Assembly (NCBI GenBank): GCA_034678405.1
Contig: JAXDBW010000042.1
Coordinates: 136 to 64,135 of the forward strand
Origin: Patescibacteria group bacterium
GTDB lineage: Bacteria > Patescibacteriota > Patescibacteriia > UBA10025 > JAHIVO01
Length of the DNA: 64,000 nucleotides
Reading direction: 5' to 3'
Positions 3,892-47,984 of this stretch are shown here, in pieces (position 1 is the stretch's first letter; each line of letters begins with the position of its first letter). The notes under the pieces were generated by a model. It did not search any database. It was not told where the DNA came from and saw only the letters and a program-made list of their open reading frames with translations. The translations under genes and the position numbers were made by a program.

Positions 3892-4142
3892 AAGGCCTTG
3901 AGTTTGTCGAAGAACCAGGTGGATACACACAACTCATGGAACACACTCCATGCGTTCTGTTCATTCGTCTGAATGACAAATCACAAAAACGGCAAACCCT
4001 CAAACAGGAGGAGAATCTTCATTTGAACCTTTCACCTCACTATTTACCGCGTAACGCTCCTTAACTGGTTCCCCATTCCCCTAGAGTGAATGGGATCCTT
4101 CTCAGGACGAGAAAATTGAACCAGCAATATAGGAGATACCAC

Positions 4143-38162: not shown

Positions 38163-38498
38163 CTACGGCCGCCGGTCAGACAAATCAGGTGACCAAATCG
38201 CCTTCGCGACGGTCACAGCGAACTTCAGCCGTTTGAAGGTCGGGAATGCCTTGATCCATTCCTCGTCCATCTGCTGCAGCTGCTCGTCTGCCTGTTCGAC
38301 CGCTTCGAGCACCTGGCTGATCACCTCGGGCGTCGGTTTCTCGCCGAGATTGACCGTCAGGTTGAAAAGCCTGACCGCGATATATGTCTGCTGCTCCTCG
38401 CTGAGCCCATACCGCTCGGCCCACCGCTCCTGCACCTGGGTGCGAACTGCCAGCATATGCTGGAATCCTGTACTAATATCAAACCGTACTTTCAGCAT
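38163..38498 (-). CDS. Hypothetical protein
   Basis: AAAGGAGAC RBS upstream of the ATG at 38498 (MLKVRFDISTG...). The ORF track start at 38594 lacks an RBS. Confidence 0.45.
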   Translation of the reverse strand: MLKVRFDISTGFQHMLAVRTQVQERWAERYGLSEEQQTYIAVRLFNLTVNLGEKPTPEVISQVLEAVEQADEQLQQMDEEWIKAFPTFKRLKFAVTVAKAIWSPDLSDRRP

Positions 38499-38747
38499 AA
38501 AAAGTCTCCTTTCAGACCTTTTCGGGGTTGAAGTGTTTTCAACGTTCTCTATTGTATTGTTTCCTCCAGCAGTAGAGTATAAAGTACAAATCATACTCCG
38601 TCAACCCCCAGCACCTCCTGACCACCCTCTTGTCATCCTGAAGGAATGTAATGACTGAAGGATATAACTATATCCTTCAAAAGTATCAGTAAAATATGCT
38701 AGACTTATGAGAGGAGGGCTTGGTATTGAGATTAATGAATATAATCC

Positions 38748-40001
38748 ATGTCTATCGAATCCAGTCCTGATGCTGGTGAAATTATAGCAAACGAAACGGT
38801 AGCAGAATTTGAACCAGCGCCTGCGCCTGAACAAGTCGAAAACCAGCAGGAGTTTGTCGACATTACTGATATCCCAGAAAATAACAACGACCTGCTGCAG
38901 GCTATCGAGGCGGAAAATCAAAATGAAGCGCTCGATTATTTCGAAACGCGGCGGAAACTAGAGAGTTTGGATGAAACACAAGTCGAGCGGATGTGGGCTG
39001 AGGTCGGAGATAGGCTGAAAGAAAACGGCATTTTCACCAATCATGCCGAGGAAGGCATCGATGTGTTTAGCAGAAAAAGTGAATGGACTTCCCCCTATCC
39101 GGTCAATCGCCTCAGTCAGGAAGAAATCCATGCAAATTTCAAAAAGAAATATGCTAATATCTCCGGATTTTATGAAGGTGGTGTTGTATTTATAAATGAA
39201 GCTGCTAATGCAAAACGGCAAACGCCCGCCCGAGAGAACTTAGCTTCGCTGGCTGCGGGGTATGGGCTGGGCGAAGAAACAGATACATTCATTCATGAAA
39301 TATACCATGGCTTCCAAGATTTAGATCCGGAGGAAGTCAAAAAATATCAAGAAGAAGTACGCCGTATCACCGATCAAATAAAAGCTATTGAAATAGAAGC
39401 ACAGATAAAAGGTCAGTACGGATACGAAGCCATCCCCTTGCGCGGCCAGCTGATCAGAATGAGAGAGGCGCTGATGGGAACGCGAAAAGACCGTTCATCT
39501 CATACCGACGATCAATTAGCTGATGATGCGATTGCACAAGAAATGCACGCACACATGTTCTCTGACCCCACGCGGTATAGGGGCAAGATAGAATCCTATA
39601 CCGAGGAGGGAGTGGTCAATGCCTATATGGAGATGCCGATACGCAGGGTATATGAAAAAATGATTGGGACCAGGAGAGATACTGAGGATACAGAAAGAAC
39701 CTATAGATATGACTATATGAAAGGTAAAGAAGATCAAGCGTTCATGGCGTTTCAGCAGATCGAAGGATTGCGGGCGCTTGGCATGAATAATTTAGAAATT
39801 GGGCGGATCATAGCTGAAGATGAATATGACAGTGAACAGGGGTACTACAAAAAATTACAAGAAGCAATATTTCAGCAACGAGAGAAACTCGGCATCGACC
39901 GAGACCAGCATCTGAAGATTGTAAAACGTTTTCGGCTGGATACCATTCATAAGGCACTCCAGGCCAGAAATATTGTGGGAAACGCGGTACGTACTATCTG
40001 A
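38748..40001 (+). CDS. Hypothetical acidic protein with an HExxH motif (low-GC island)
   Basis: 417 aa with FIHEIYHGFQDLDPEE. Local GC is about 35-40% against a background near 52%. Confidence 0.5.
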   Translation: MSIESSPDAGEIIANETVAEFEPAPAPEQVENQQEFVDITDIPENNNDLLQAIEAENQNEALDYFETRRKLESLDETQVERMWAEVGDRLKENGIFTNHAEEGIDVFSRKSEWTSPYPVNRLSQEEIHANFKKKYANISGFYEGGVVFINEAANAKRQTPARENLASLAAGYGLGEETDTFIHEIYHGFQDLDPEEVKKYQEEVRRITDQIKAIEIEAQIKGQYGYEAIPLRGQLIRMREALMGTRKDRSSHTDDQLADDAIAQEMHAHMFSDPTRYRGKIESYTEEGVVNAYMEMPIRRVYEKMIGTRRDTEDTERTYRYDYMKGKEDQAFMAFQQIEGLRALGMNNLEIGRIIAEDEYDSEQGYYKKLQEAIFQQREKLGIDRDQHLKIVKRFRLDTIHKALQARNIVGNAVRTI

Positions 40002-40017
40002 TACCTCCTATCATACT

Positions 40018-40371
40018 ATGCCACACATCATCCAATATAGATGCGAAAATTACGAAAAGTGTCACTTTGGAATAATTGACACTGGCCCAACCATGAACGT
40101 TAGATTGGAAGATGGCACTATAGAAAAACTGCCACATCCATCTGAGGAAGCGAGAGCTCTGGCAGTAACTGGCAAGAGCCTAGGTGAATTAGCAGAAGAA
40201 AAAAGAATTTTTTACCAAGAGAGCAAATTTTGCACCAGATGTCTGAAGGTGGCGGAGGAATGCGTGTGTCAGGATACAGCTGCGCATATACCGATGTCAG
40301 AGCTAGAGGGCAAAAAATGTTTCGTGTGTAAAACGGGAATTATAAAAAAGAGCGCGGTCGGCATGTCGTGA
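40018..40371 (+). CDS. Cys-rich small protein (multiple CxxC pairs)
   Basis: CENYEKCH ... CTRCLKVAEECVC ... CFVCK. Start is uncertain (ORF track gives 39973), and there is no clear RBS. Confidence 0.35.
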   Translation: MPHIIQYRCENYEKCHFGIIDTGPTMNVRLEDGTIEKLPHPSEEARALAVTGKSLGELAEEKRIFYQESKFCTRCLKVAEECVCQDTAAHIPMSELEGKKCFVCKTGIIKKSAVGMS

Positions 40372-40405
40372 GCGCACCACCCTCTAGCCGTCCTGAATAA
40401 AAACA

Positions 40406-40526
40406 TTGTCATCCTGAACCCGAAGGTCCTGATGGAAATCAGGATCTCAAAAAAATCCACAGTGGATTGTTTGAGATTCCGGGTCCCCGTAGAGTGACGG
40501 GGCAGGCAAGCCCGGAATGACAATCG
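40406..40526. repeat. Two adjacent copies, in opposite orientation, of the TTGTCATyCyGA...GGATCTC hairpin repeat family
   Basis: TTGTCATCCTGAACCCGAAGGTCCTGATGGAAATCAGGATCTC (40406-40448). The reverse complement of 40473-40526 is TTGTCATTCCGGGC...CCCGGAATCTC. Confidence 0.7.
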
Positions 40527-40530
40527 TTTT

Positions 40531-40989
40531 TTAGGATACCTTCAAAACCTCCGCCAGTATCGGATGCGAGAAATACGCCAGCACGTCGAAATCAGGGTCG
40601 GATAGCTCCATCATCTCCATCCCCGGCCGCTCAATGATCTGATACCCTGGCTTGCCGAGATACTTACGCTTAAACGCTGGATAATCACTCAACGTAAAAT
40701 CCGCATCGCCCCTCTCTGGCCGGTCCGCGGCTGGTTTGCGTACTTTCACTATCTTCAATGGATCGGCTACCGTTTCAATCGGCTCGGCTAGCAAATACAC
40801 ATTCCCCATCTTCGTCTCCTGCACGACTCTGCCCATTTCCCCGACGGCCGTATCCATCTGCTGATACTCCGCCTCTGACTGCGCGAAAATGCACGCGTAA
40901 TTCACCGGCACGCCTTTTGCATCGGTGTGCTTGTCTTTTAATCGCTCGGCGTCCCGGACGATGGATTGAATTATGCTGATTACATTCAT
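40531..40989 (-). CDS. Hypothetical protein
   Basis: 152 aa ORF with normal host GC. Confidence 0.45.
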   Translation of the reverse strand: MNVISIIQSIVRDAERLKDKHTDAKGVPVNYACIFAQSEAEYQQMDTAVGEMGRVVQETKMGNVYLLAEPIETVADPLKIVKVRKPAADRPERGDADFTLSDYPAFKRKYLGKPGYQIIERPGMEMMELSDPDFDVLAYFSHPILAEVLKVS

Positions 40990-41408
40990 GACATTTTCTT
41001 AATCTTCTTCGTTACCGCGTCCTGAAATATGCGAAATGCTTTGCGTTTCTCCTTCGGATAGATATAGGGAATACCCAGCACGAAACCACACGATCTACAC
41101 TTCAGCGGGCCAATACTTGCCAAGTCCTTCTTCTGTAAATCAACCAACCGCTCTGGACTCATGATCCGGTCCATATACAACCGTCGTAGGTTCCCCGGGC
41201 CATCTTTTTGATAAACTAGTACCGCTGCCCCACACTGCTGACACGAAATATCCAGCAGCCGTGAATATCCTCCCCGAGCGCTTTTGTATTTGTCTCGCTT
41301 GAGTGTGAGTTGTTTCTTTTTCATGCGATTAGTATACCAAAAATCTCCGCTCCCCGCCTGTTGGGGGTGGTTTTGGGGCATTTTACTACCGCGTGGATTC
41401 CTCCACAC
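40986..41408 (-). CDS. Zinc-ribbon protein
   Basis: CQQCG...CRSCG. The start may be the internal MKKKQLTLKR at 41324. Confidence 0.4.
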   Translation of the reverse strand: MWRNPRGSKMPQNHPQQAGSGDFWYTNRMKKKQLTLKRDKYKSARGGYSRLLDISCQQCGAAVLVYQKDGPGNLRRLYMDRIMSPERLVDLQKKDLASIGPLKCRSCGFVLGIPYIYPKEKRKAFRIFQDAVTKKIKKMS

Positions 41409-42300
41409 CCCTAATAAGAGTCTCGAGGTGTGATTTCAAATTATCCTGGCTTAAAATAACTATCTCAAGGGTTTTTTCGCGTTTAGTGCGTCTTGGAGGG
41501 AGTCGATTGGAGTATTTTCTCCAAAATTTCTCTCGCAGCGGATACTCATAAATTACAGAACCCACATCTTTACATGACCACGCCTCTTGATTAATCACCT
41601 GACCATCAGCAAGCAACTCATCGTTTATTGAACAGAATTGCATCTGATTATTTGTAATAAGTAGTGGATGAAAAAGTAATTTATTGACGGAGCCAGATCT
41701 TACTTTTTCGTTTTCCTCAATGATCCATTTTGTATATTGATCGACAAAGAAGCGTTGTGCTAAAGATACCTGATGACATGCCTTGAATATTGGTTCATTT
41801 GAAGTTAAAAAATATTGATCCTTGTCGTCTTTCTTCAGCACATAGCCCTGTTCCGCATAACTATATGCATTCGTTAAAAGAAATACGTTGCTGGACAATT
41901 CATAGCTTTTTGAAGGAGGGGCGAGATCCCCACCACGATTTCCAGGATCATCAATTACCTTTATACATTCCATACTATAGGGAACCTCCTCCTCACCAAA
42001 AAAGACCCAAGAGGCGGTGTTCTTTTTTCTGTACTCCTCAATATTACTAGGATTATGATACTTACACTCAATAATTAAAAAAACTATGTAATCGTTAATT
42101 ACCTTACTGGCAATTATATCAACGGCCGAATCATCAGTATCTTTATATCTAAAATCACTTGCACCAGATACTGGAAATTCAATATCAGAAATTTCAAAGC
42201 CGTACTTTGACAGTAAAATCTGAGACTTCTTCTGAAATGAAATCCCAGAATTGCTAATCGCCTCTATTTGTCCCTGTTCCATTTCTCCAACATAATTCAC
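41386..42300 (-). CDS. PD-(D/E)xK nuclease-like protein (restriction-endonuclease-like fold), low GC
   Basis: 304 aa at about 33% GC. DIIASKVINDYIVFLIIECKY fits a D...(E/D)xK core. There is no adjacent methyltransferase. Confidence 0.4.
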   Translation of the reverse strand: MNYVGEMEQGQIEAISNSGISFQKKSQILLSKYGFEISDIEFPVSGASDFRYKDTDDSAVDIIASKVINDYIVFLIIECKYHNPSNIEEYRKKNTASWVFFGEEEVPYSMECIKVIDDPGNRGGDLAPPSKSYELSSNVFLLTNAYSYAEQGYVLKKDDKDQYFLTSNEPIFKACHQVSLAQRFFVDQYTKWIIEENEKVRSGSVNKLLFHPLLITNNQMQFCSINDELLADGQVINQEAWSCKDVGSVIYEYPLREKFWRKYSNRLPPRRTKREKTLEIVILSQDNLKSHLETLIRGVEESTR

Positions 42301-42351
42301 TTATGTACACAGTATACACCAAAAGAGCCCCTTGCGGGGCTCTTGGAGATA

Positions 42352-44283
42352 TTACTTCTTGTCTTCCTTTTTGACGTCCTCGTACTCTGCTTCGACGGGA
42401 CCGTCTTTCTTATCGTCCTTCTGCTCGGCTCCGGGCTGTGCGCCGGGTTGGCCCTGGGGACCACCCTGTCCGGGCTGACCCTTTTGGTCGCCGTACATGG
42501 CCTGGCCGATCTTCTGGACGGTTTGATTCAGATCTTCGACTGCTTTCTTGATGGCGTCGACATCATCCTTATCCTTCACCTCGTTGACTGCCTTCACCTT
42601 CTCTTCGATTTCTTTCTTCACGTCATCCTTGACCTTGTCCCCGGCATCTTTGAGTGCCTTCTCGGCGGTGTAGGTCAGGGTCTCGGCCTGGTTACGGATT
42701 TCGATCAGTTCTTTCTTCTTCGTATCTTCTGCTTCGTGTGCCTGCGCGTCCTGTTTCATCTTCTCTACTTCTTCCTTGGATAATCCAGAAGAGGCAGTGA
42801 TAGTGATGGATTGCTCCTTGCCAGAGGCTTTGTCTTTGGCTTTCACATTCAGGATACCATTGGCATCAATGTCGAATGACACCTCTACCTGCGGGACGCC
42901 GCGTGGTGACGGCGGGATACCGGAGAGGATGAAGCGACCGAGGGTCTTATTATCCGTGGCCATGGGGCGTTCGCCCTGCAGCACGTGAACCTCGACTGAC
43001 GTCTGGTTATCAGCGGCAGTAGAGAAGACCTGCGATTTGCTGGTCGGGATAGTGGTGTTACGTTCGATTAACGGCGTGGAGACACCACCGAGGGTTTCGA
43101 TACCGAGAGTTAATGGAGTGACGTCGAGTAAGAGTACGTCCTTCACATCACCCTGCAGCACGCCAGCCTGGACCGCGGCGCCCATGGCGACCACTTCGTC
43201 CGGGTTTACACCCACGTGGGGTTTCTTGCCAAAATATTTCTCGACGACTTCGAGCACCTTCGGCATGCGGGTCATACCACCCACCATGATCACCTCTTCG
43301 ATGTCCTTGGCTTCCATTTTCGCATCCTCGAGGGCTTTCTTCAGGGGTTCGATGGTTTTCTCGATGAGGTCCTCGACGAGTGATTCCAGTTTCGCCCGAG
43401 TGAGTTTCAGGTTCATGTGTTTCGGACCAGATGAGTCAGTGGTGATAAACGGCAGGTTGACCTCTGTCTCAGTCGTGGTAGAGAGTTCGATCTTGGCTTT
43501 CTCCGCGGCTTCTTTCAGACGCTGGAGGGCCATCTGATCCTTGGACAGGTCGATACCCTGGTCCTTGGTAAATTCCTCTACCAGCCAGTCGATAATGCGT
43601 TTGTCAAAATCATCACCACCGAGGTGAGTATCACCGTTGGTGGATTTCACTTCCACGGTGTCCTCAGAGATGTCCAGGATAGAGATATCAAACGTACCGC
43701 CACCCAAGTCATAGACCGCGACTTGCTGGTTTTTCTTCTTATCAAATCCATAGGCCAGCGCAGCTGCCGTGGGTTCGTTGATGATACGCTTGACCTTCAG
43801 CCCTGCGATTTCACCAGCGTCCTTCGTGGCCTGCCGCTGTGAGTCATCGAAATACGCCGGCACGGTAATGACAGCTTCTTCGATCTTCTCACCGATTTTG
43901 GCTTCGGCGTCGGATTTCAGCTTCTGGAGGATCATGGCGGAGACTTCCTGCGGGGTGTAGAGATTGTCACCCATCTTTACCTTCACGCCCTGACCAGCCT
44001 GCTCGATCTTGTACGGCATGGTTTTCACATCATGCTGCACTTCGTCGTCATCCCAGTGGCGGCCGATGAGGCGTTTCACTGAGAAGACGGTGTTTTCCGG
44101 ATTGGTGACCGCTTGGCGTTTGGCGACTTGGCCGACGAGGCGTTCGCCAGTCTTACTGATCGCCACCATTGACGGAGTCGTCCGGTTGCCTTCTTTGTTT
44201 TCGATCACTTTCGGTTCGCCACCTTCCACGATTGCCATGGCTGAGTTGGTCGTACCGAGATCGATTCCGAGAATCTTTGACAT
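42352..44283 (-). CDS. dnaK: Molecular chaperone DnaK (Hsp70)
   Basis: [18 protein letters not shown], and a C-terminal lid with the acidic tail [10 protein letters not shown]. Confidence 0.98.
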
Positions 44284-44348
44284 AGTGTTATTCGTTAATC
44301 CTTTCTAAATTGGTTAGGTTAATATTTCCGTGTCACTCTGAACCCGTT

Positions 44349-44432
44349 CGCTTTCACTCAGGGCATGCTCAGTGAAGAGTCTCCTAGCCATTACATGGCT
44401 AGGGGTTCCTTCGCTTCGCTCAGGATGACAAT
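44349..44432. repeat. Hairpin repeat family copies upstream of dnaK
   Basis: 44408-44432 reverse complement is TTGTCATCCTGAGCGAAGCGAAGG. 44349-44379 is a related GCATGC-centred palindrome. Confidence 0.6.
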
Positions 44433-44441
44433 GTGCATTGG

Positions 44442-44801
44442 TTAATTAAGAAAATTATCTGTTTTCTCCAGGGCTTCATGGATAGCCAGGACGTCTTCGC
44501 CCCGTACCCGTTCACCATCCTGGAATCTAAGTACTTCATGCCGCTCGAGGTCAGTCAGGGTACTGGCTACTTTCAGACCCTGCTGCGACATAGAGATGAG
44601 GGACATGGCCGCACTCTGGCAGGTGGTGCATTTGATATACATCAGGGTCGCACCGTCTTCCTCCTGGATGACGTCGATTTTATTGAAGTCGTACATGCTG
44701 CGGCAGACCGGGCAGCGGGCGTCTATTTTGATCCGCTCCGGGCGGCCACCCTGCTGGTCATTGCCGAAATTGCTGTTGAAATTGTTATTGATTGCGCTCA
44801 T
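44442..44801 (-). CDS. Zinc-ribbon protein inside the heat-shock cluster
   Basis: 119 aa with CPVCRS ... CTTCQS. It is co-directional between hsp20 and dnaK. Confidence 0.45.
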   Translation of the reverse strand: MSAINNNFNSNFGNDQQGGRPERIKIDARCPVCRSMYDFNKIDVIQEEDGATLMYIKCTTCQSAAMSLISMSQQGLKVASTLTDLERHEVLRFQDGERVRGEDVLAIHEALEKTDNFLN

Positions 44802-44835
44802 GTATTGTATTGGGTAATGGGTTATCCCTCACCGA

Positions 44836-44949
44836 TTGTCATCCCGAGCAACGCCGAGGGATCTCTGTGAATGGCTGCCGCGTCGGGTAACCGAGATGCT
44901 TCGGCTTCGTCGCGTATATCTACGCGACTTCGCTCAGCATGACAAGCGT
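44836..44949. repeat. Hairpin repeat family copies
   Basis: TTGTCATCCCGAGCAACGCCGAGGGATCTC (44836-44865). The reverse complement of 44926-44949 is CGCTTGTCATGCTGAGCGAAGTCG. Confidence 0.65.
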
Positions 44950-45057
44950 GAGTGCCCCAGAGCCAGAAGATGAGCGAAAGGGGGTGTCCACTCTGGATCT
45001 TCTGGCTCCGGGGGATGACTGAATTATTCAGTCACCGGGTTCCGGATGCCAACGTGG

Positions 45058-45483
45058 TTACTTTTTCACGTTGACCTTGATCGATTTGGGTTTGACTTCT
45101 TCGGCTTTCGGGATGGTGATCTTCAGCATCCCTTTGTCGAAATCAGCCTGGGCGTCGGCGCCCTTCACCTGCGTCGGGAGAGCGACCGCGCGGTAGAATG
45201 AGCCGCTGCGGACCTCTTTGCGGTAGAAATTCTGATCATCGACTTCCCGCTTGTGTTCCATCGTGCCCTCGATCTTCAGGACGTCGTTTTCGATGGTGAT
45301 GTTCACCTTGTCCGGGTCGACGCCGGCCAGCGGGGTTTCTACGATGACATTGTCTTTGTCCTGGTAGATGTCCACCGCGGGGGTGAATGAGTGAGTCTCC
45401 GCCATGCTCATGGGCATGTCCTCGAAAAATTTATCGAAATCGGACATGTCCCAGAATGGACGGTAGCGCATAAGTTGTCGCAT
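45058..45483 (-). CDS. Hsp20/alpha-crystallin small heat-shock protein
   Basis: 141 aa. Alpha-crystallin domain with AVDIYQDKDNVIVETPLAGV...GMLKITIPK. Confidence 0.85.
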   Translation of the reverse strand: MRQLMRYRPFWDMSDFDKFFEDMPMSMAETHSFTPAVDIYQDKDNVIVETPLAGVDPDKVNITIENDVLKIEGTMEHKREVDDQNFYRKEVRSGSFYRAVALPTQVKGADAQADFDKGMLKITIPKAEEVKPKSIKVNVKK

Positions 45484-45537
45484 AGATTTTTGTCCTTTCT
45501 GCCCGATAGGGCGTTAGTTAATTATTTTTTTAATTCC

Positions 45538-45695
45538 TCATCCCGAACTTGTCTCGGGATCTAATTGGTCATTGTATGATTCAACCGTTTTGTCATTCTG
45601 AAGGAGCGACGAGCGACTGAAGAATCTCTATGACTTTTTACTTAGCTCATGAAGATTCTTCGACTCCACTTCGTTTCGCTCAGAATGACAAAGGG
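45538..45695. repeat. Three copies of the hairpin repeat family between grpE and hsp20
   Basis: CTCATCCCGAACTTGTCTCGGGATCT (45538-45563), TTGTCATTCTGAAGGAGCGACGAGCGACTGAAGAATCTC (45590-45628), and the reverse complement of 45670-45695, CCTTTGTCATTCTGAGCGAAACGAAG. Confidence 0.7.
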
Positions 45696-45708
45696 TGGTT
45701 AGTATTTC

Positions 45709-46194
45709 TTACGCTGCCACTTTCACCTTCGCCGGGTCGAGTACCTTGCCATGCATCAGATAGCCGGGCTTCACTTCCTCGATAATCATATCTGCGGCGA
45801 CACCATCTTTCTTTTCTTTACCGACGGCTTCATGTTTCTCTGGGTCGAACTTCTCGCCTTCAGTTTTAATCTCTTCGATGCCGAGCTGCCCCAGAAAATC
45901 AGTCATTTGTTTCTTGATCTGCTCGAGACCCGTCATCCAGTCGCTCTTCTTCTGGTCGTCGGGGATGTGTTTCCAGGCAAGTTTGAAATTGTCATAGATC
46001 GGCAGGAGCTGGAGAATCAGTGAGGCATTAGCGAACTGCACCATTTCCATCTGTTTCTTCTCTGATTCTTTCTTCAGATTGATATAGTCTGCTTTCGCCC
46101 GCTTCCAGCCGTTCATGTATTCGTCCATTTTTGTGTGTGCTACCTCGAGTTCTTTTTGTAATTTCTCTGTCTCGCCTGTATGTTTGTTGTCCAT
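45709..46194 (-). CDS. grpE: Nucleotide exchange factor GrpE
   Basis: 161 aa with a coiled-coil N-terminus (YMNGWKRAKADYINLKKESEKK) and the GrpE C-terminal beta domain (PEKHEAV...PGY..HGKVL). Confidence 0.9.
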   Translation of the reverse strand: MDNKHTGETEKLQKELEVAHTKMDEYMNGWKRAKADYINLKKESEKKQMEMVQFANASLILQLLPIYDNFKLAWKHIPDDQKKSDWMTGLEQIKKQMTDFLGQLGIEEIKTEGEKFDPEKHEAVGKEKKDGVAADMIIEEVKPGYLMHGKVLDPAKVKVAA

Positions 46195-46348
46195 GATGAA
46201 GTGTGTCTAAAGTTTAAGGTTGAAAGAGGTATGTATGGAAATATGTTTAAAGTCTTTAGTTACCGACCTATGACCTTCAACCTACATCTATACTTTCCTC
46301 TTTAAACATCCAACATACAACCTACTATCAAGAGCCCTCTATCCTCTA

Positions 46349-47056
46349 TTACGCGTCGCTAAATAATTTCTTGGTAAAGTGGACTAAGGCATAGGTATCT
46401 TCGTAGTTCATCCGCATGGGCCCCAGCACACCGATCAAGCCTGGCTGCTCGCTACCAAACTGGTACGCACTGAAGATCGTGCTGCATTCACTGCCGAAAG
46501 GATTCTCTGAGCCGACCAGTACGCGCGGGTTGTCCGTCACTTTATTGAAGAGCTGCACGATGACGTCGTCGAGATGATCGACGATTTCCGTCATATTGCG
46601 GATCAGGTCAATGTCTTTGAATTCTGGTTTGTTAAATAAATTGGACAGGCCCGTGTAGTATACGTTGTCGGGATTGAAGCCGACAAAAACGGCATTCTGC
46701 GAGAGTTGCGCCAGTGTGCGAGCCACCTCTTTCACGGCGACTTCCTTGTCCGCCTCTTTGCGTTTGTGCAGCGCCTTCTGCAGGAGCGTCATATCGCCTT
46801 TGGTAGGCTCTTTTTCCACCAGGAAGTTCTCGATATAGTACTGCCAGCCTTTCTCAGTGGGGACGCGTCCGGCGGAGGTATGCGGCTGATAAATCAGGCC
46901 TTCTTCTTCGAGATCGGCCATTTCATTGCGAATGGTAGCGGATGACAGCTGCAGGTCGTATTTATCCACAAGCGCCTTCGAAGGCACGGTTTTTCCCATG
47001 CTTCCGACGTGTTCGTTGATAATTGCGCTAAGAATAGCCTTTTTTCGTTCTTTCAT
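46349..47056 (-). CDS. hrcA: Heat-inducible transcription repressor HrcA (short form)
   Basis: wHTH LSSATIRNEMADLEEEGLIYQPHTSAGRVPT, C-terminal GPMRMNYEDTYALV, and a perfect CIRCE upstream. Confidence 0.9.
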   Translation of the reverse strand: MKERKKAILSAIINEHVGSMGKTVPSKALVDKYDLQLSSATIRNEMADLEEEGLIYQPHTSAGRVPTEKGWQYYIENFLVEKEPTKGDMTLLQKALHKRKEADKEVAVKEVARTLAQLSQNAVFVGFNPDNVYYTGLSNLFNKPEFKDIDLIRNMTEIVDHLDDVIVQLFNKVTDNPRVLVGSENPFGSECSTIFSAYQFGSEQPGLIGVLGPMRMNYEDTYALVHFTKKLFSDA

Positions 47057-47082
47057 ATGCTACGCAAAGGTATTATAAATCA

Positions 47083-47109
47083 TTAGCACTCTCAGGTCAA
47101 GAGTGCTAA
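47083..47109. promoter_or_regulatory. CIRCE operator (HrcA binding site)
   Basis: TTAGCACTC-N9-GAGTGCTAA, a perfect match to the CIRCE consensus, 27 nt upstream of the hrcA start. Confidence 0.9.
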
Positions 47110-47162
47110 TATCATGCTTTTTACTAAATGTCCCCTTTAGCTACCCAGTATTACTTCCGCTA

Positions 47163-47984
47163 TCATTCCCAAACTTCGGTAAACTGAAATGTTTTGAATA
47201 TCATTTTGTTTATTTCAGAATTATTACCACGCAGCAGGTACGTGTGTCCTTTGAGTTCGAACAGATAATTCAGAGCTTCTCCCCCGATCGCCATTGACTC
47301 GGTCACCGACCAACCGGGTATCCCACTCGCATAAATCTTTTTCTTGGTTAACAACGTATCGACCACGTCACTAATTTTTTCATCGATCGGTGTCTGGTCT
47401 ACTGAAATATATGGATATGGATAGCTGCCGTCGATGGGGGCAATCGAAATAGTTGCGTTATCTTGATCAATGATGTTGTATGTCGGCGGGTAGGAAATCC
47501 TGTATGCATACTCCTCGTTCTCATACGTGAGCCAGTCAGAGGTGTCCACCGTCGTGCTGTCGGCATTCGCGTTGGTCGCCGAATTTGTATTGCCGTTTAT
47601 ATTCCCATTGGGATCAGCCACACAAAATGACACAGTCTCACCATAGTCTTCAATTTGTATCCACTGATCTATTTCGCATATTTCTCCTGATTCACAATCA
47701 CTATCGCTCTCACATAATTTGTGACATTTCTGATCACCGCCGACTGTCTCAACCGGTGCAGTACCATCCCATCGCAGCCCACCACTGACCGCATGATAGC
47801 AGTAGTACCCTTCGGGGCAGGAGTTAGACGTATAGGTGCATTCAGGTGTTTCAGCAACCGTAACAGCTGCATCGTTCCCCTCCTCATTATCCTTCACTAC
47901 AAATGCCGCAGTGAGCATGAGCACGGTGATGAGGAAGATAAAACCAATGATGATGGTATAGGTGTAGCCTTTTTGGGTGGTCAT
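47163..47984 (-). CDS. Cys-rich secreted protein with a pilin-like N-terminus
   Basis: Basic leader ending in QKG, then YTYTIIIGFIFLITVLMLTAA, which resembles a class III/prepilin signal. 14 Cys in the mature part. Paralogous N-terminus with the next gene. Confidence 0.55.
   Translation of the reverse strand: MTTQKGYTYTIIIGFIFLITVLMLTAAFVVKDNEEGNDAAVTVAETPECTYTSNSCPEGYYCYHAVSGGLRWDGTAPVETVGGDQKCHKLCESDSDCESGEICEIDQWIQIEDYGETVSFCVADPNGNINGNTNSATNANADSTTVDTSDWLTYENEEYAYRISYPPTYNIIDQDNATISIAPIDGSYPYPYISVDQTPIDEKISDVVDTLLTKKKIYASGIPGWSVTESMAIGGEALNYLFELKGHTYLLRGNNSEINKMIFKTFQFTEVWE

Follow-up and report, generated by a model that had tools for sequence, protein, structure and literature searches.

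Tagged palindromic repeats, probably of the CGTC-type REP superfamily, in the heat-shock operon of an uncultured Patescibacteria bacterium

What kind of element are the short hairpin sequences that recur between the genes of a heat-shock operon in an uncultured Patescibacteria bacterium? The operon lies on the minus strand in the order hrcA-grpE-hsp20-zinc-ribbon gene-dnaK, on a contig that comes from a metagenome assembly (GenBank GCA_034678405.1, contig JAXDBW010000042.1, positions 136 to 64,135), and the whole 64-kb stretch that was analysed is called the window here. The homologues of its GrpE assign the organism to Patescibacteria. A sequence-only reading of the window had described a dispersed hairpin repeat with conserved flanks and a variable centre, had counted at least nine copies in both orientations, and had placed them around the stress genes. 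That observation is confirmed; the window holds 10 units on the plus and minus strands, eight of which form four inverted pairs (dimers) of 102-118 nt with their TGTC tags outward, that is, head to head (HH). The repeats are probably repetitive extragenic palindromic (REP) elements belonging to the CGTC-tagged superfamily, in its TGTC variant, and their dimer organisation and wide family distribution had both escaped the earlier reading.

Tagged hairpin units and their dimers

The units were extracted by direct reading of the sequence, each being written 5' to 3' on its own strand (Table 1), and they share the plan TGTC - AT NNN - variable centre - N'N'N' AT - CTC. An unpaired 5' tag (YGTC) precedes a 5-bp stem that opens with an A-T and a T-A pair; usually a tandem G.A/A.G mismatch follows, then a distal stem-loop free in both length and sequence, and finally a short unpaired tail (CTC). 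Nine of the ten units have the tag TGTC and U7 has CCTC, the stem opens with AT...AT in nine (AC...GT in U3), and the tail reads CTC or CTT in eight. GA stands on both sides after the 5-bp stem in seven units, which creates the tandem mismatch, and Watson-Crick pairs take its place in the other three. The canonical form has nine stacked positions (5 bp, the G.A/A.G mismatch and 2 bp) and a 3-nt loop. Of the flanks given by the sequence-only reading, the complete 3' flank TCRGRATCTC fits U1 only, the general form being N'N'N'AT-CTC.

Most units belong to HH dimers, with 20-60 nt between the arms. Dimer A, which accounts for the repeats previously placed at 40406-40526, has the stems ATCCTGA/TCAGGAT and ATTCCGGG/CCCGGAAT and carries a small hairpin of its own in the spacer (ATCCACAGTGGAT), and the centre of dimer B is a 9-bp hairpin (CTAGCCATGTAATGGCTAG). 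The grpE-hsp20, hsp20-zinc-ribbon and zinc-ribbon-dnaK spacers each contain a dimer; the hrcA-grpE spacer, where copies had also been placed, has no unit. Dimer D begins 17 nt past the grpE stop codon, and the single unit U7 lies antisense to the operon, 54 nt 5' of the hsp20 start codon. The 3' arm of U10 is at the same time the left arm of a perfect 11-bp hairpin at 38659-38684, TGAAGGATATA-AC-TATATCCTTCA, and the two cannot form together. An eleventh match at 3968-3979, without a closing arm, is probably due to chance.

The repeats are enriched in the window. The sequence TTGTCATYCYGA, with at most one mismatch, gives 9 matches against 1.37 +/- 1.08 expected (100 dinucleotide shuffles of the window; shuffle maximum 4). 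The 3' half alone (RGRATCTC) shows no enrichment in the window (15 matches against 11.8 expected) and, as only the 5' half is enriched, the signal consists of the tag plus the paired arms. Generic scans of the window for an anchor with a perfect arm returned counts close to those of shuffled controls; being unspecific, they were replaced by unit criteria that combine tag, AT-stem and tail. Of the roughly 35 intergenic gaps that measure 60 nt or more, only five contain units, and all five lie within 38.6-45.7 kb. The fifth, at 38595-38747, contains U10 and had been scored empty in the automated gap list, in which a greedy choice of open reading frames (ORFs) had shortened it. The clustering around stress genes is thus real within the window, and it recurs in related genomes.

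The earlier reading had proposed computing a folding energy for each copy, and the outcome differs between dimers and single units. As RNA, the dimers fold into long branched hairpins of -39 to -54 kcal/mol (z -3.9 to -6.7), in which each arm pairs with the other through its outer tag and first stem, and their DNA folds resemble the RNA folds; single units, however, are not unusually stable. No unit is followed by a U-tract or T-run and none appears in the terminator scan of the window, so that an intrinsic terminator is ruled out. Rfam returned only two tRNAs at the gathering score in the window, and nothing relevant at E <= 10 in 38400-47300. A hammerhead or other ribozyme was dropped on the basis of the core (CUGAGCG is not CUGANGA), an integron attC site on the lack of R'/R'' GTTRRRY boxes, and a kink-turn on the lack of a 3-nt bulge.

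Table 1. Repeat units, dimers and heat-shock operon features of the window. Units are numbered U1-U10; kcal/mol and z refer to the predicted fold.
Feature	Positions	Strand	Remarks
Dimer A	40406-40523		U1 + U2; between convergent ORFs 39973-40371 (+) and 40531-40989 (-); RNA -53.5 kcal/mol, z -5.8; DNA z -7.4
U1	40406-40448	+	dimer A
U2	40473-40523	-	dimer A
Dimer B	44330-44431		U3 + U4; zinc-ribbon-dnaK spacer; RNA, transcript strand, -39.3 kcal/mol, z -3.9
U3	44330-44383	+	dimer B; degenerate, GTGTCAC
U4	44401-44431	-	dimer B; broken 3' arm (AGGAA)
Dimer C	44836-44945		U5 + U6; hsp20-zinc-ribbon spacer; RNA -51.7 kcal/mol, z -4.9
U5	44836-44865	+	dimer C
U6	44893-44945	-	dimer C
Dimer D	45590-45691		U8 + U9; grpE-hsp20 spacer; RNA -43.1 kcal/mol, z -6.7
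U8	45590-45628	+	dimer D
U9	45652-45691	-	dimer D
U7	45537-45562	+	single; tag CCTC, not TGTC; CTCATCCCGAACTTGTCTCGGGATCT; RNA -9.5 kcal/mol, z -2.7
U10	38630-38664	+	single; TTGTCATCCTGAAGGAATGTAATGACTGAAGGATA; divergent intergenic region; fold alone weak, z -0.7
CIRCE operator	47081-47111	-	promoter-like site embedded
hrcA	46349-47056	-	
grpE	45709-46194	-	
hsp20	45058-45483	-	Pfam
zinc-ribbon ORF	44442-44801	-	119 aa, CxxC
dnaK	42352-44283	-	
Operon terminator	42317-42344	-	strong hairpin

Persistence in related operons and recurrence across phyla

The heat-shock operons of relatives were fetched and their spacers compared with those of the window. In the closest relative (locus L154, GrpE 89% identical), the unit that follows grpE is orthologous to U9 and compensated, its stem being ATCCT/AGGAT where the window has ATTCT/AGAAT, and U8 has a near-identical counterpart in the grpE-hsp20 spacer of a further relative (L244:1822-1858). 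Dimers occupy the zinc-ribbon-dnaK spacer of the window, of L155/L240/L241 and of L244, with six different stems, five of them fully paired (GCCTC/GAGGC, ATCTC/GAGAT, ATCGC/GCGAT and ATTGC/GCAAT in the relatives). U7 is conserved in L155/L240/L241, where it forms the right arm of a degenerate dimer. The hsp20-zinc-ribbon dimer is found only in the window and in L242 and is absent in L155/L240/L241 and L243, and the operons of L157 and L243 are present without any unit. Orthologous and compensated units in the operon spacers show that the elements are old residents there, evolving under a pairing constraint and occasionally gained or lost; by this comparison, the dimers of this Patescibacteria lineage have kept their places between the operon genes.

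The canonical short form, GTCAT-NNN-GAGCGAAGCGA-NNN-ATC, was searched with one genome per species and with the phylum taken as given in the record, and at least 120 genome stretches, spread over 15 phyla or more, contain it. The phyla among the matches listed, to which the counts in this paragraph refer, include Acidobacteriota, Nitrospirota, Planctomycetota, Bacteroidota, Chloroflexota, Verrucomicrobiota, Gemmatimonadota, Bacillota, Pseudomonadota, Patescibacteria (including Gracilibacteria and Saccharimonadales), Omnitrophota, Armatimonadota, Nitrospinota, Deferribacterota, Latescibacterota and Bdellovibrionota. Perfect complementarity of the two free triplets is seen in 131 of the 143 matches, against 1/64 by chance, and nine Watson-Crick triplet types occur among them. 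In the same loci, HH dimers with outward tags number 57 and tail-to-tail (TT) dimers with inward tags only five, and the stems differ between the arms in 35 of the 57 HH dimers. A further 143 units in these loci lie outside the selection made by the pattern, and 99 of them retain GA..GA, compared with 0-1 for control tags. Directly before GTC, 112 of 142 matches have T and 22 have C; directly after ATC, T stands in 115 of 140 and the next position is C in 80 of 140, tails of the CCA type being a minority. The commonest core in the genome sample is the tandem G.A mismatch followed by a GC-GAA-GC apex. Taken together, the covariation of the triplets across phyla and the compensated changes in orthologous copies show that the hairpin is maintained by selection.

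Contigs predicted to be viral also carry the repeat. A search with the 5' half returned 32 of them (IMG/VR, L002-L033), most of them with the short form TTGTCATYCTGAGCGAAGCGAAGRATCTC and often with an inverted partner, and phages may carry units between hosts. The unit-rich viral contigs are L023, with 14 half-site matches, and L014, with 9. In a metagenome-assembled genome of Bacteroidaceae, a tandem array of eight 105-nt repeats (L039:3450-4220) has one canonical unit, CTGTCATGTTGAGCGAAGCGAAACATCTC, in each repeat. Several loci from Acidobacteriota and others (L037, L042, L073, L108, L119 and L142) contain many dimers inside an outer inverted repeat, CAGGCTGCGGAAAAAG ... CTTTTTCCGCAGCCTG, and this nesting suggests mosaic composite elements that resemble bacterial interspersed mosaic elements (BIMEs). 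BLAST gave no match for the canonical dimer in E. coli genomes or for the operon spacers in a plasmid collection, and a full-text literature search with the repeat sequence returned unrelated primers only.

Relation to known palindromic repeats and to transposases

REPs have been divided into GTAG-tagged and CGTC-tagged superfamilies (Di Nocera, De Gregorio and Rocco 2013, BMC Genomics 14:522, PMC3733652). According to that survey, the CGTC tag is often replaced by TGTC or CCTC, the stems nearly always open with complementary A-T residues and measure 8-9 bp with a loop of 4-5 nt (families with other loop lengths are noted), and a 3-nt tail with the consensus CCA follows. HH dimers predominate over rare TT dimers, spacers span 20-100 bp, heterodimers are frequent, copies number from tens to thousands per genome, and an association with a transposase gene is absent. 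The hosts fall into five phyla, and the members include the Neisseria dRS3 and the Rickettsia RPE-4 and RPE-6 elements (PMC3733652). The units of the window share with these elements the unpaired TGTC or CCTC tag, the A-T/T-A opening of the stem, a short unpaired 3' tail, which here reads CTC, the HH arrangement (four of four dimers), the frequency of heterodimers, the lack of an adjacent transposase gene and a position between genes that are unidirectional or convergent. In tag, stem opening, dimer arrangement and lack of a transposase, the units agree with what is diagnostic of the CGTC/TGTC-tagged superfamily (PMC3733652), and the earlier suggestion that the repeats are REP-like is right. 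The host, an uncultured Patescibacteria bacterium, is new for a known element, and the element is not of a new kind. Patescibacteria and more than 10 other phyla, as found here, exceed the five host phyla given in that survey (PMC3733652).

Likenesses to other tagged hairpins are more limited. The GTAG-tagged REPs of E. coli and Pseudomonas, with their BIMEs and REPINs (Nunvar 2010, PMC2817692; Bertels and Rainey 2011, PMC3116915), also have a 4-nt tag beside an imperfect hairpin, form inverted dimers able to fold into one long hairpin, lie in intergenic positions inside operons and persist vertically over long periods, and a GCGAAGC-type apex occurs in some enterobacterial REPs as well. The present repeats differ from them in the TGTC tag, in copies that are far more divergent, and in that the genes for REP-associated tyrosine transposases (RAYTs) of the lineage have no flanking units. 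The subterminal hairpins of IS200/IS605 elements, which are read by the Y1 transposase TnpA, are similar in being single-strand hairpins with an adjacent short cleavage or guide motif and no target-site duplication; here, however, no transposase or TnpB gene lies between the hairpins, and the elements are non-coding and about 100 nt long.

Several points weigh against a placement among the CGTC-tagged REPs. The tail is CTC where the survey gives CCA, and most units have 5-8 Watson-Crick base pairs and a centre of 7-35 nt in place of an 8-9-bp stem and a 4-5-nt loop. On account of this tail and the longer centres, the repeats are assigned to the superfamily, as a variant in a new host, and not to any one of its four families. 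The census of units covers only 64 kb of the genome, where the 10 units are clustered. Single units, with z from +1.4 to -3.5 in nearest-neighbour energies, are not unusually stable, and the canonical unit reaches only z -1.0 as RNA and -0.3 as DNA. Lastly, the function proposed below for the dimers, as mRNA decay barriers or processing sites, is taken solely from the analogy with E. coli REP/BIME elements.

The window dimers place two inverted REPs in one hairpin fold, as REPINs do. A further reading makes the dimers non-autonomous elements that depend for their copying, in trans, on a RAYT encoded once in the host genome; like E. coli RayT on GTAG REPs, it would bind the hairpin in single-stranded form and cleave at the TGTC tag. 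GTAG REPs do offer a parallel to the dimer architecture and to the design of tag, hairpin and internal mismatch, and single-copy RAYT homologues are common in Patescibacteria. In L154, a Y1_Tnp gene of 187 aa (L154:4470-5033) lies directly 5' of CIRCE and hrcA and scores 116 bits against NCBIfam NF047646, 'REP-associated tyrosine transposase' (cut-off 80), yet it has no flanking units. L245, another RAYT carrier, has two HH dimers within 20 kb, but its RAYT gene and that of L246 abut their neighbours (L245:10001-10561, 1 nt after an MgsA-type AAA+ gene; L246:10001-10591, 17 nt after a UvrD gene), which leaves no room for repeats, and no units flank them. At 80 metagenome loci that contain a RAYT relative, 18 units are more than 400 nt from the gene and a single one is within that distance, the density being lower near the gene. 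The window itself holds no Y1 gene, its copies differ greatly, unlike the near-identical populations of REPINs, and its tags are TGTC or CCTC where GTAG would be expected; CGTC REPs likewise lack a transposase association in the 2013 survey (PMC3733652). Copying by a RAYT is therefore judged unlikely. The homologues in L154, L245 and L246, which are single-copy, packed against housekeeping genes and without flanking repeats, look domesticated. The 2013 conclusion that CGTC REPs have no dedicated transposase is reproduced here, and all-against-all clustering of the ORFs in the motif-bearing loci, at least 120 in number, gave no recurrent neighbour, the largest cluster comprising 10 loci.

The sequence-only reading had also raised miniature inverted-repeat transposable elements (MITEs), which would here go back to an insertion sequence of the DDE type whose terminal inverted repeats read TGTCAT...ATGACA. 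The length of the pairs and their inverted ends, which begin with TG and end with CA, would suit such an origin, but no direct repeats flank any of the four pairs, the arms often have different, internally compensated stems, as expected of hairpins and not of transposase-binding ends, many units are single, and the motif-bearing loci have no recurrent transposase gene nearby. In the absence of target-site duplications and of an associated transposase gene, the suggestion was rejected, and the probability left to it is negligible.

HUH/Y1 enzymes recognise a tag together with a single-strand hairpin that has an internal mismatch, on single-stranded DNA. The elements, which are best regarded as CGTC-tagged REPs, would probably have spread by means of an enzyme that reads single-stranded hairpins beside a short tag in the same manner. 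The combination of the tandem G.A mismatch and the GC-GAA-GC apex is favourable on the tag strand only, and this points to one of the two strands being active, be it as DNA or as RNA.

The heat-shock operon and a possible role of the dimers

The transcript of the operon would run from the CIRCE operator and promoter near 47100 to the terminator near 42320, and since no terminator lies between them, dimers B, C and D are predicted to be co-transcribed in the polycistronic mRNA. There they would fold into very stable branched hairpins, whose most likely effect would be to block 3'->5' exonucleases or to provide sites for endonucleases, so that the mRNA half-lives of the cistrons would differ and their mRNA levels would be uncoupled. 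By analogy with the REP/BIME elements of E. coli, a barrier to mRNA decay or a processing site is the most likely role of the dimers.

A rival reading sees in the repeats a host-selected regulatory RNA specific to the heat-shock operon, sensitive to temperature or to RNase, which would fix the proportions of HrcA, GrpE, Hsp20, zinc-ribbon protein and DnaK, the likeness to REPs being explained by co-option. The same three spacers are occupied in several lineages in which the zinc-ribbon protein is only 63-71% identical and the stems are compensated, the density of units in operon spacers is several times that of other sequence in these genomes, and U7, 5' of hsp20, is conserved in L155. However, the same elements occur outside the operon, both in the window (40406-40523 and 38630) and in L245, they lie beside unrelated genes in at least 15 phyla, the L157 and L243 operons do without them, and no unit covers a ribosome-binding site. 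A regulatory RNA of this kind is accordingly given little credence, and residence of REP-type elements in the operon remains the preferred reading.

The operon has further features of its own. The CIRCE element 5' of hrcA is perfect, TTAGCACTC-N9-GAGTGCTAA, and the same element is present at L154:5113-5141; its loop contains TTGACC, a -35-like hexamer, and TATAAT follows 17 nt downstream. The 154-nt hrcA-grpE spacer (46195-46348) is AT-rich and mostly conserved with L154:5873-6000, and the distance between these genes in L155 and L157 is down to 9 nt or gives way to an overlap. After hsp20, the minus-strand transcript contains a long hairpin (44955-45013), GGAGCCAGAAGAT...ATCTTCTGGCTCTGG, of -40.6 kcal/mol as RNA (z -5.6), which lacks a U-tract, stands outside the repeat family and is conserved in L155/L240/L241, where the loop is CCCCCTTTCG; processing or stabilisation may be its role. 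No Pfam match was found for the three minus-strand ORFs 3' of dnaK (152, 140 and 304 aa; 40531-42300) or for two upstream plus-strand ORFs (417 and 132 aa).

The repeats also bear on the annotation of the operon. The public gene call between hsp20 and dnaK is a plus-strand ORF (44433-44870) that runs through unit U5 and ends in ...VIPSNAEGSL. The minus-strand ORF on the same stretch, with its CxxC...CxxC pattern, has 45 homologues in Patescibacteria, always between hsp20 and dnaK, and belongs to no Pfam family. The real gene at 44442-44801 is this zinc-ribbon ORF and not the plus-strand call. Repeat units thus produce spurious ORF calls, and the pipeline that annotated the contig took a false ORF over the zinc-ribbon gene.

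A broader view of the family, which is put forward only as a long shot, is that the YGTC-AT...GA/GA...AT-CTC hairpin is one ancient, nearly pan-bacterial element that has stayed almost unchanged in at least 15 phyla without a transposase of its own. If so, the protein that reads it would be either a conserved factor of the host or one of the domesticated RAYT-like Y1 proteins embedded in operons of Patescibacteria, and the long retention of compensated stems in the heat-shock operon of these genome-reduced bacteria would reflect a host function and not parasitism.

As REP-type elements, the repeats add Patescibacteria, whose genomes are among the smallest and most compact of bacteria, to the hosts of tagged REPs, and they extend the TGTC/CGTC family to far more phyla than the five of the 2013 report. 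What still merits attention is how wide the family is and that it lacks a cognate transposase. Two questions come within easier reach of a test: by what means CGTC-type REPs are copied when no transposase is linked to them, and what keeps them at fixed sites in an operon under strong genome reduction.

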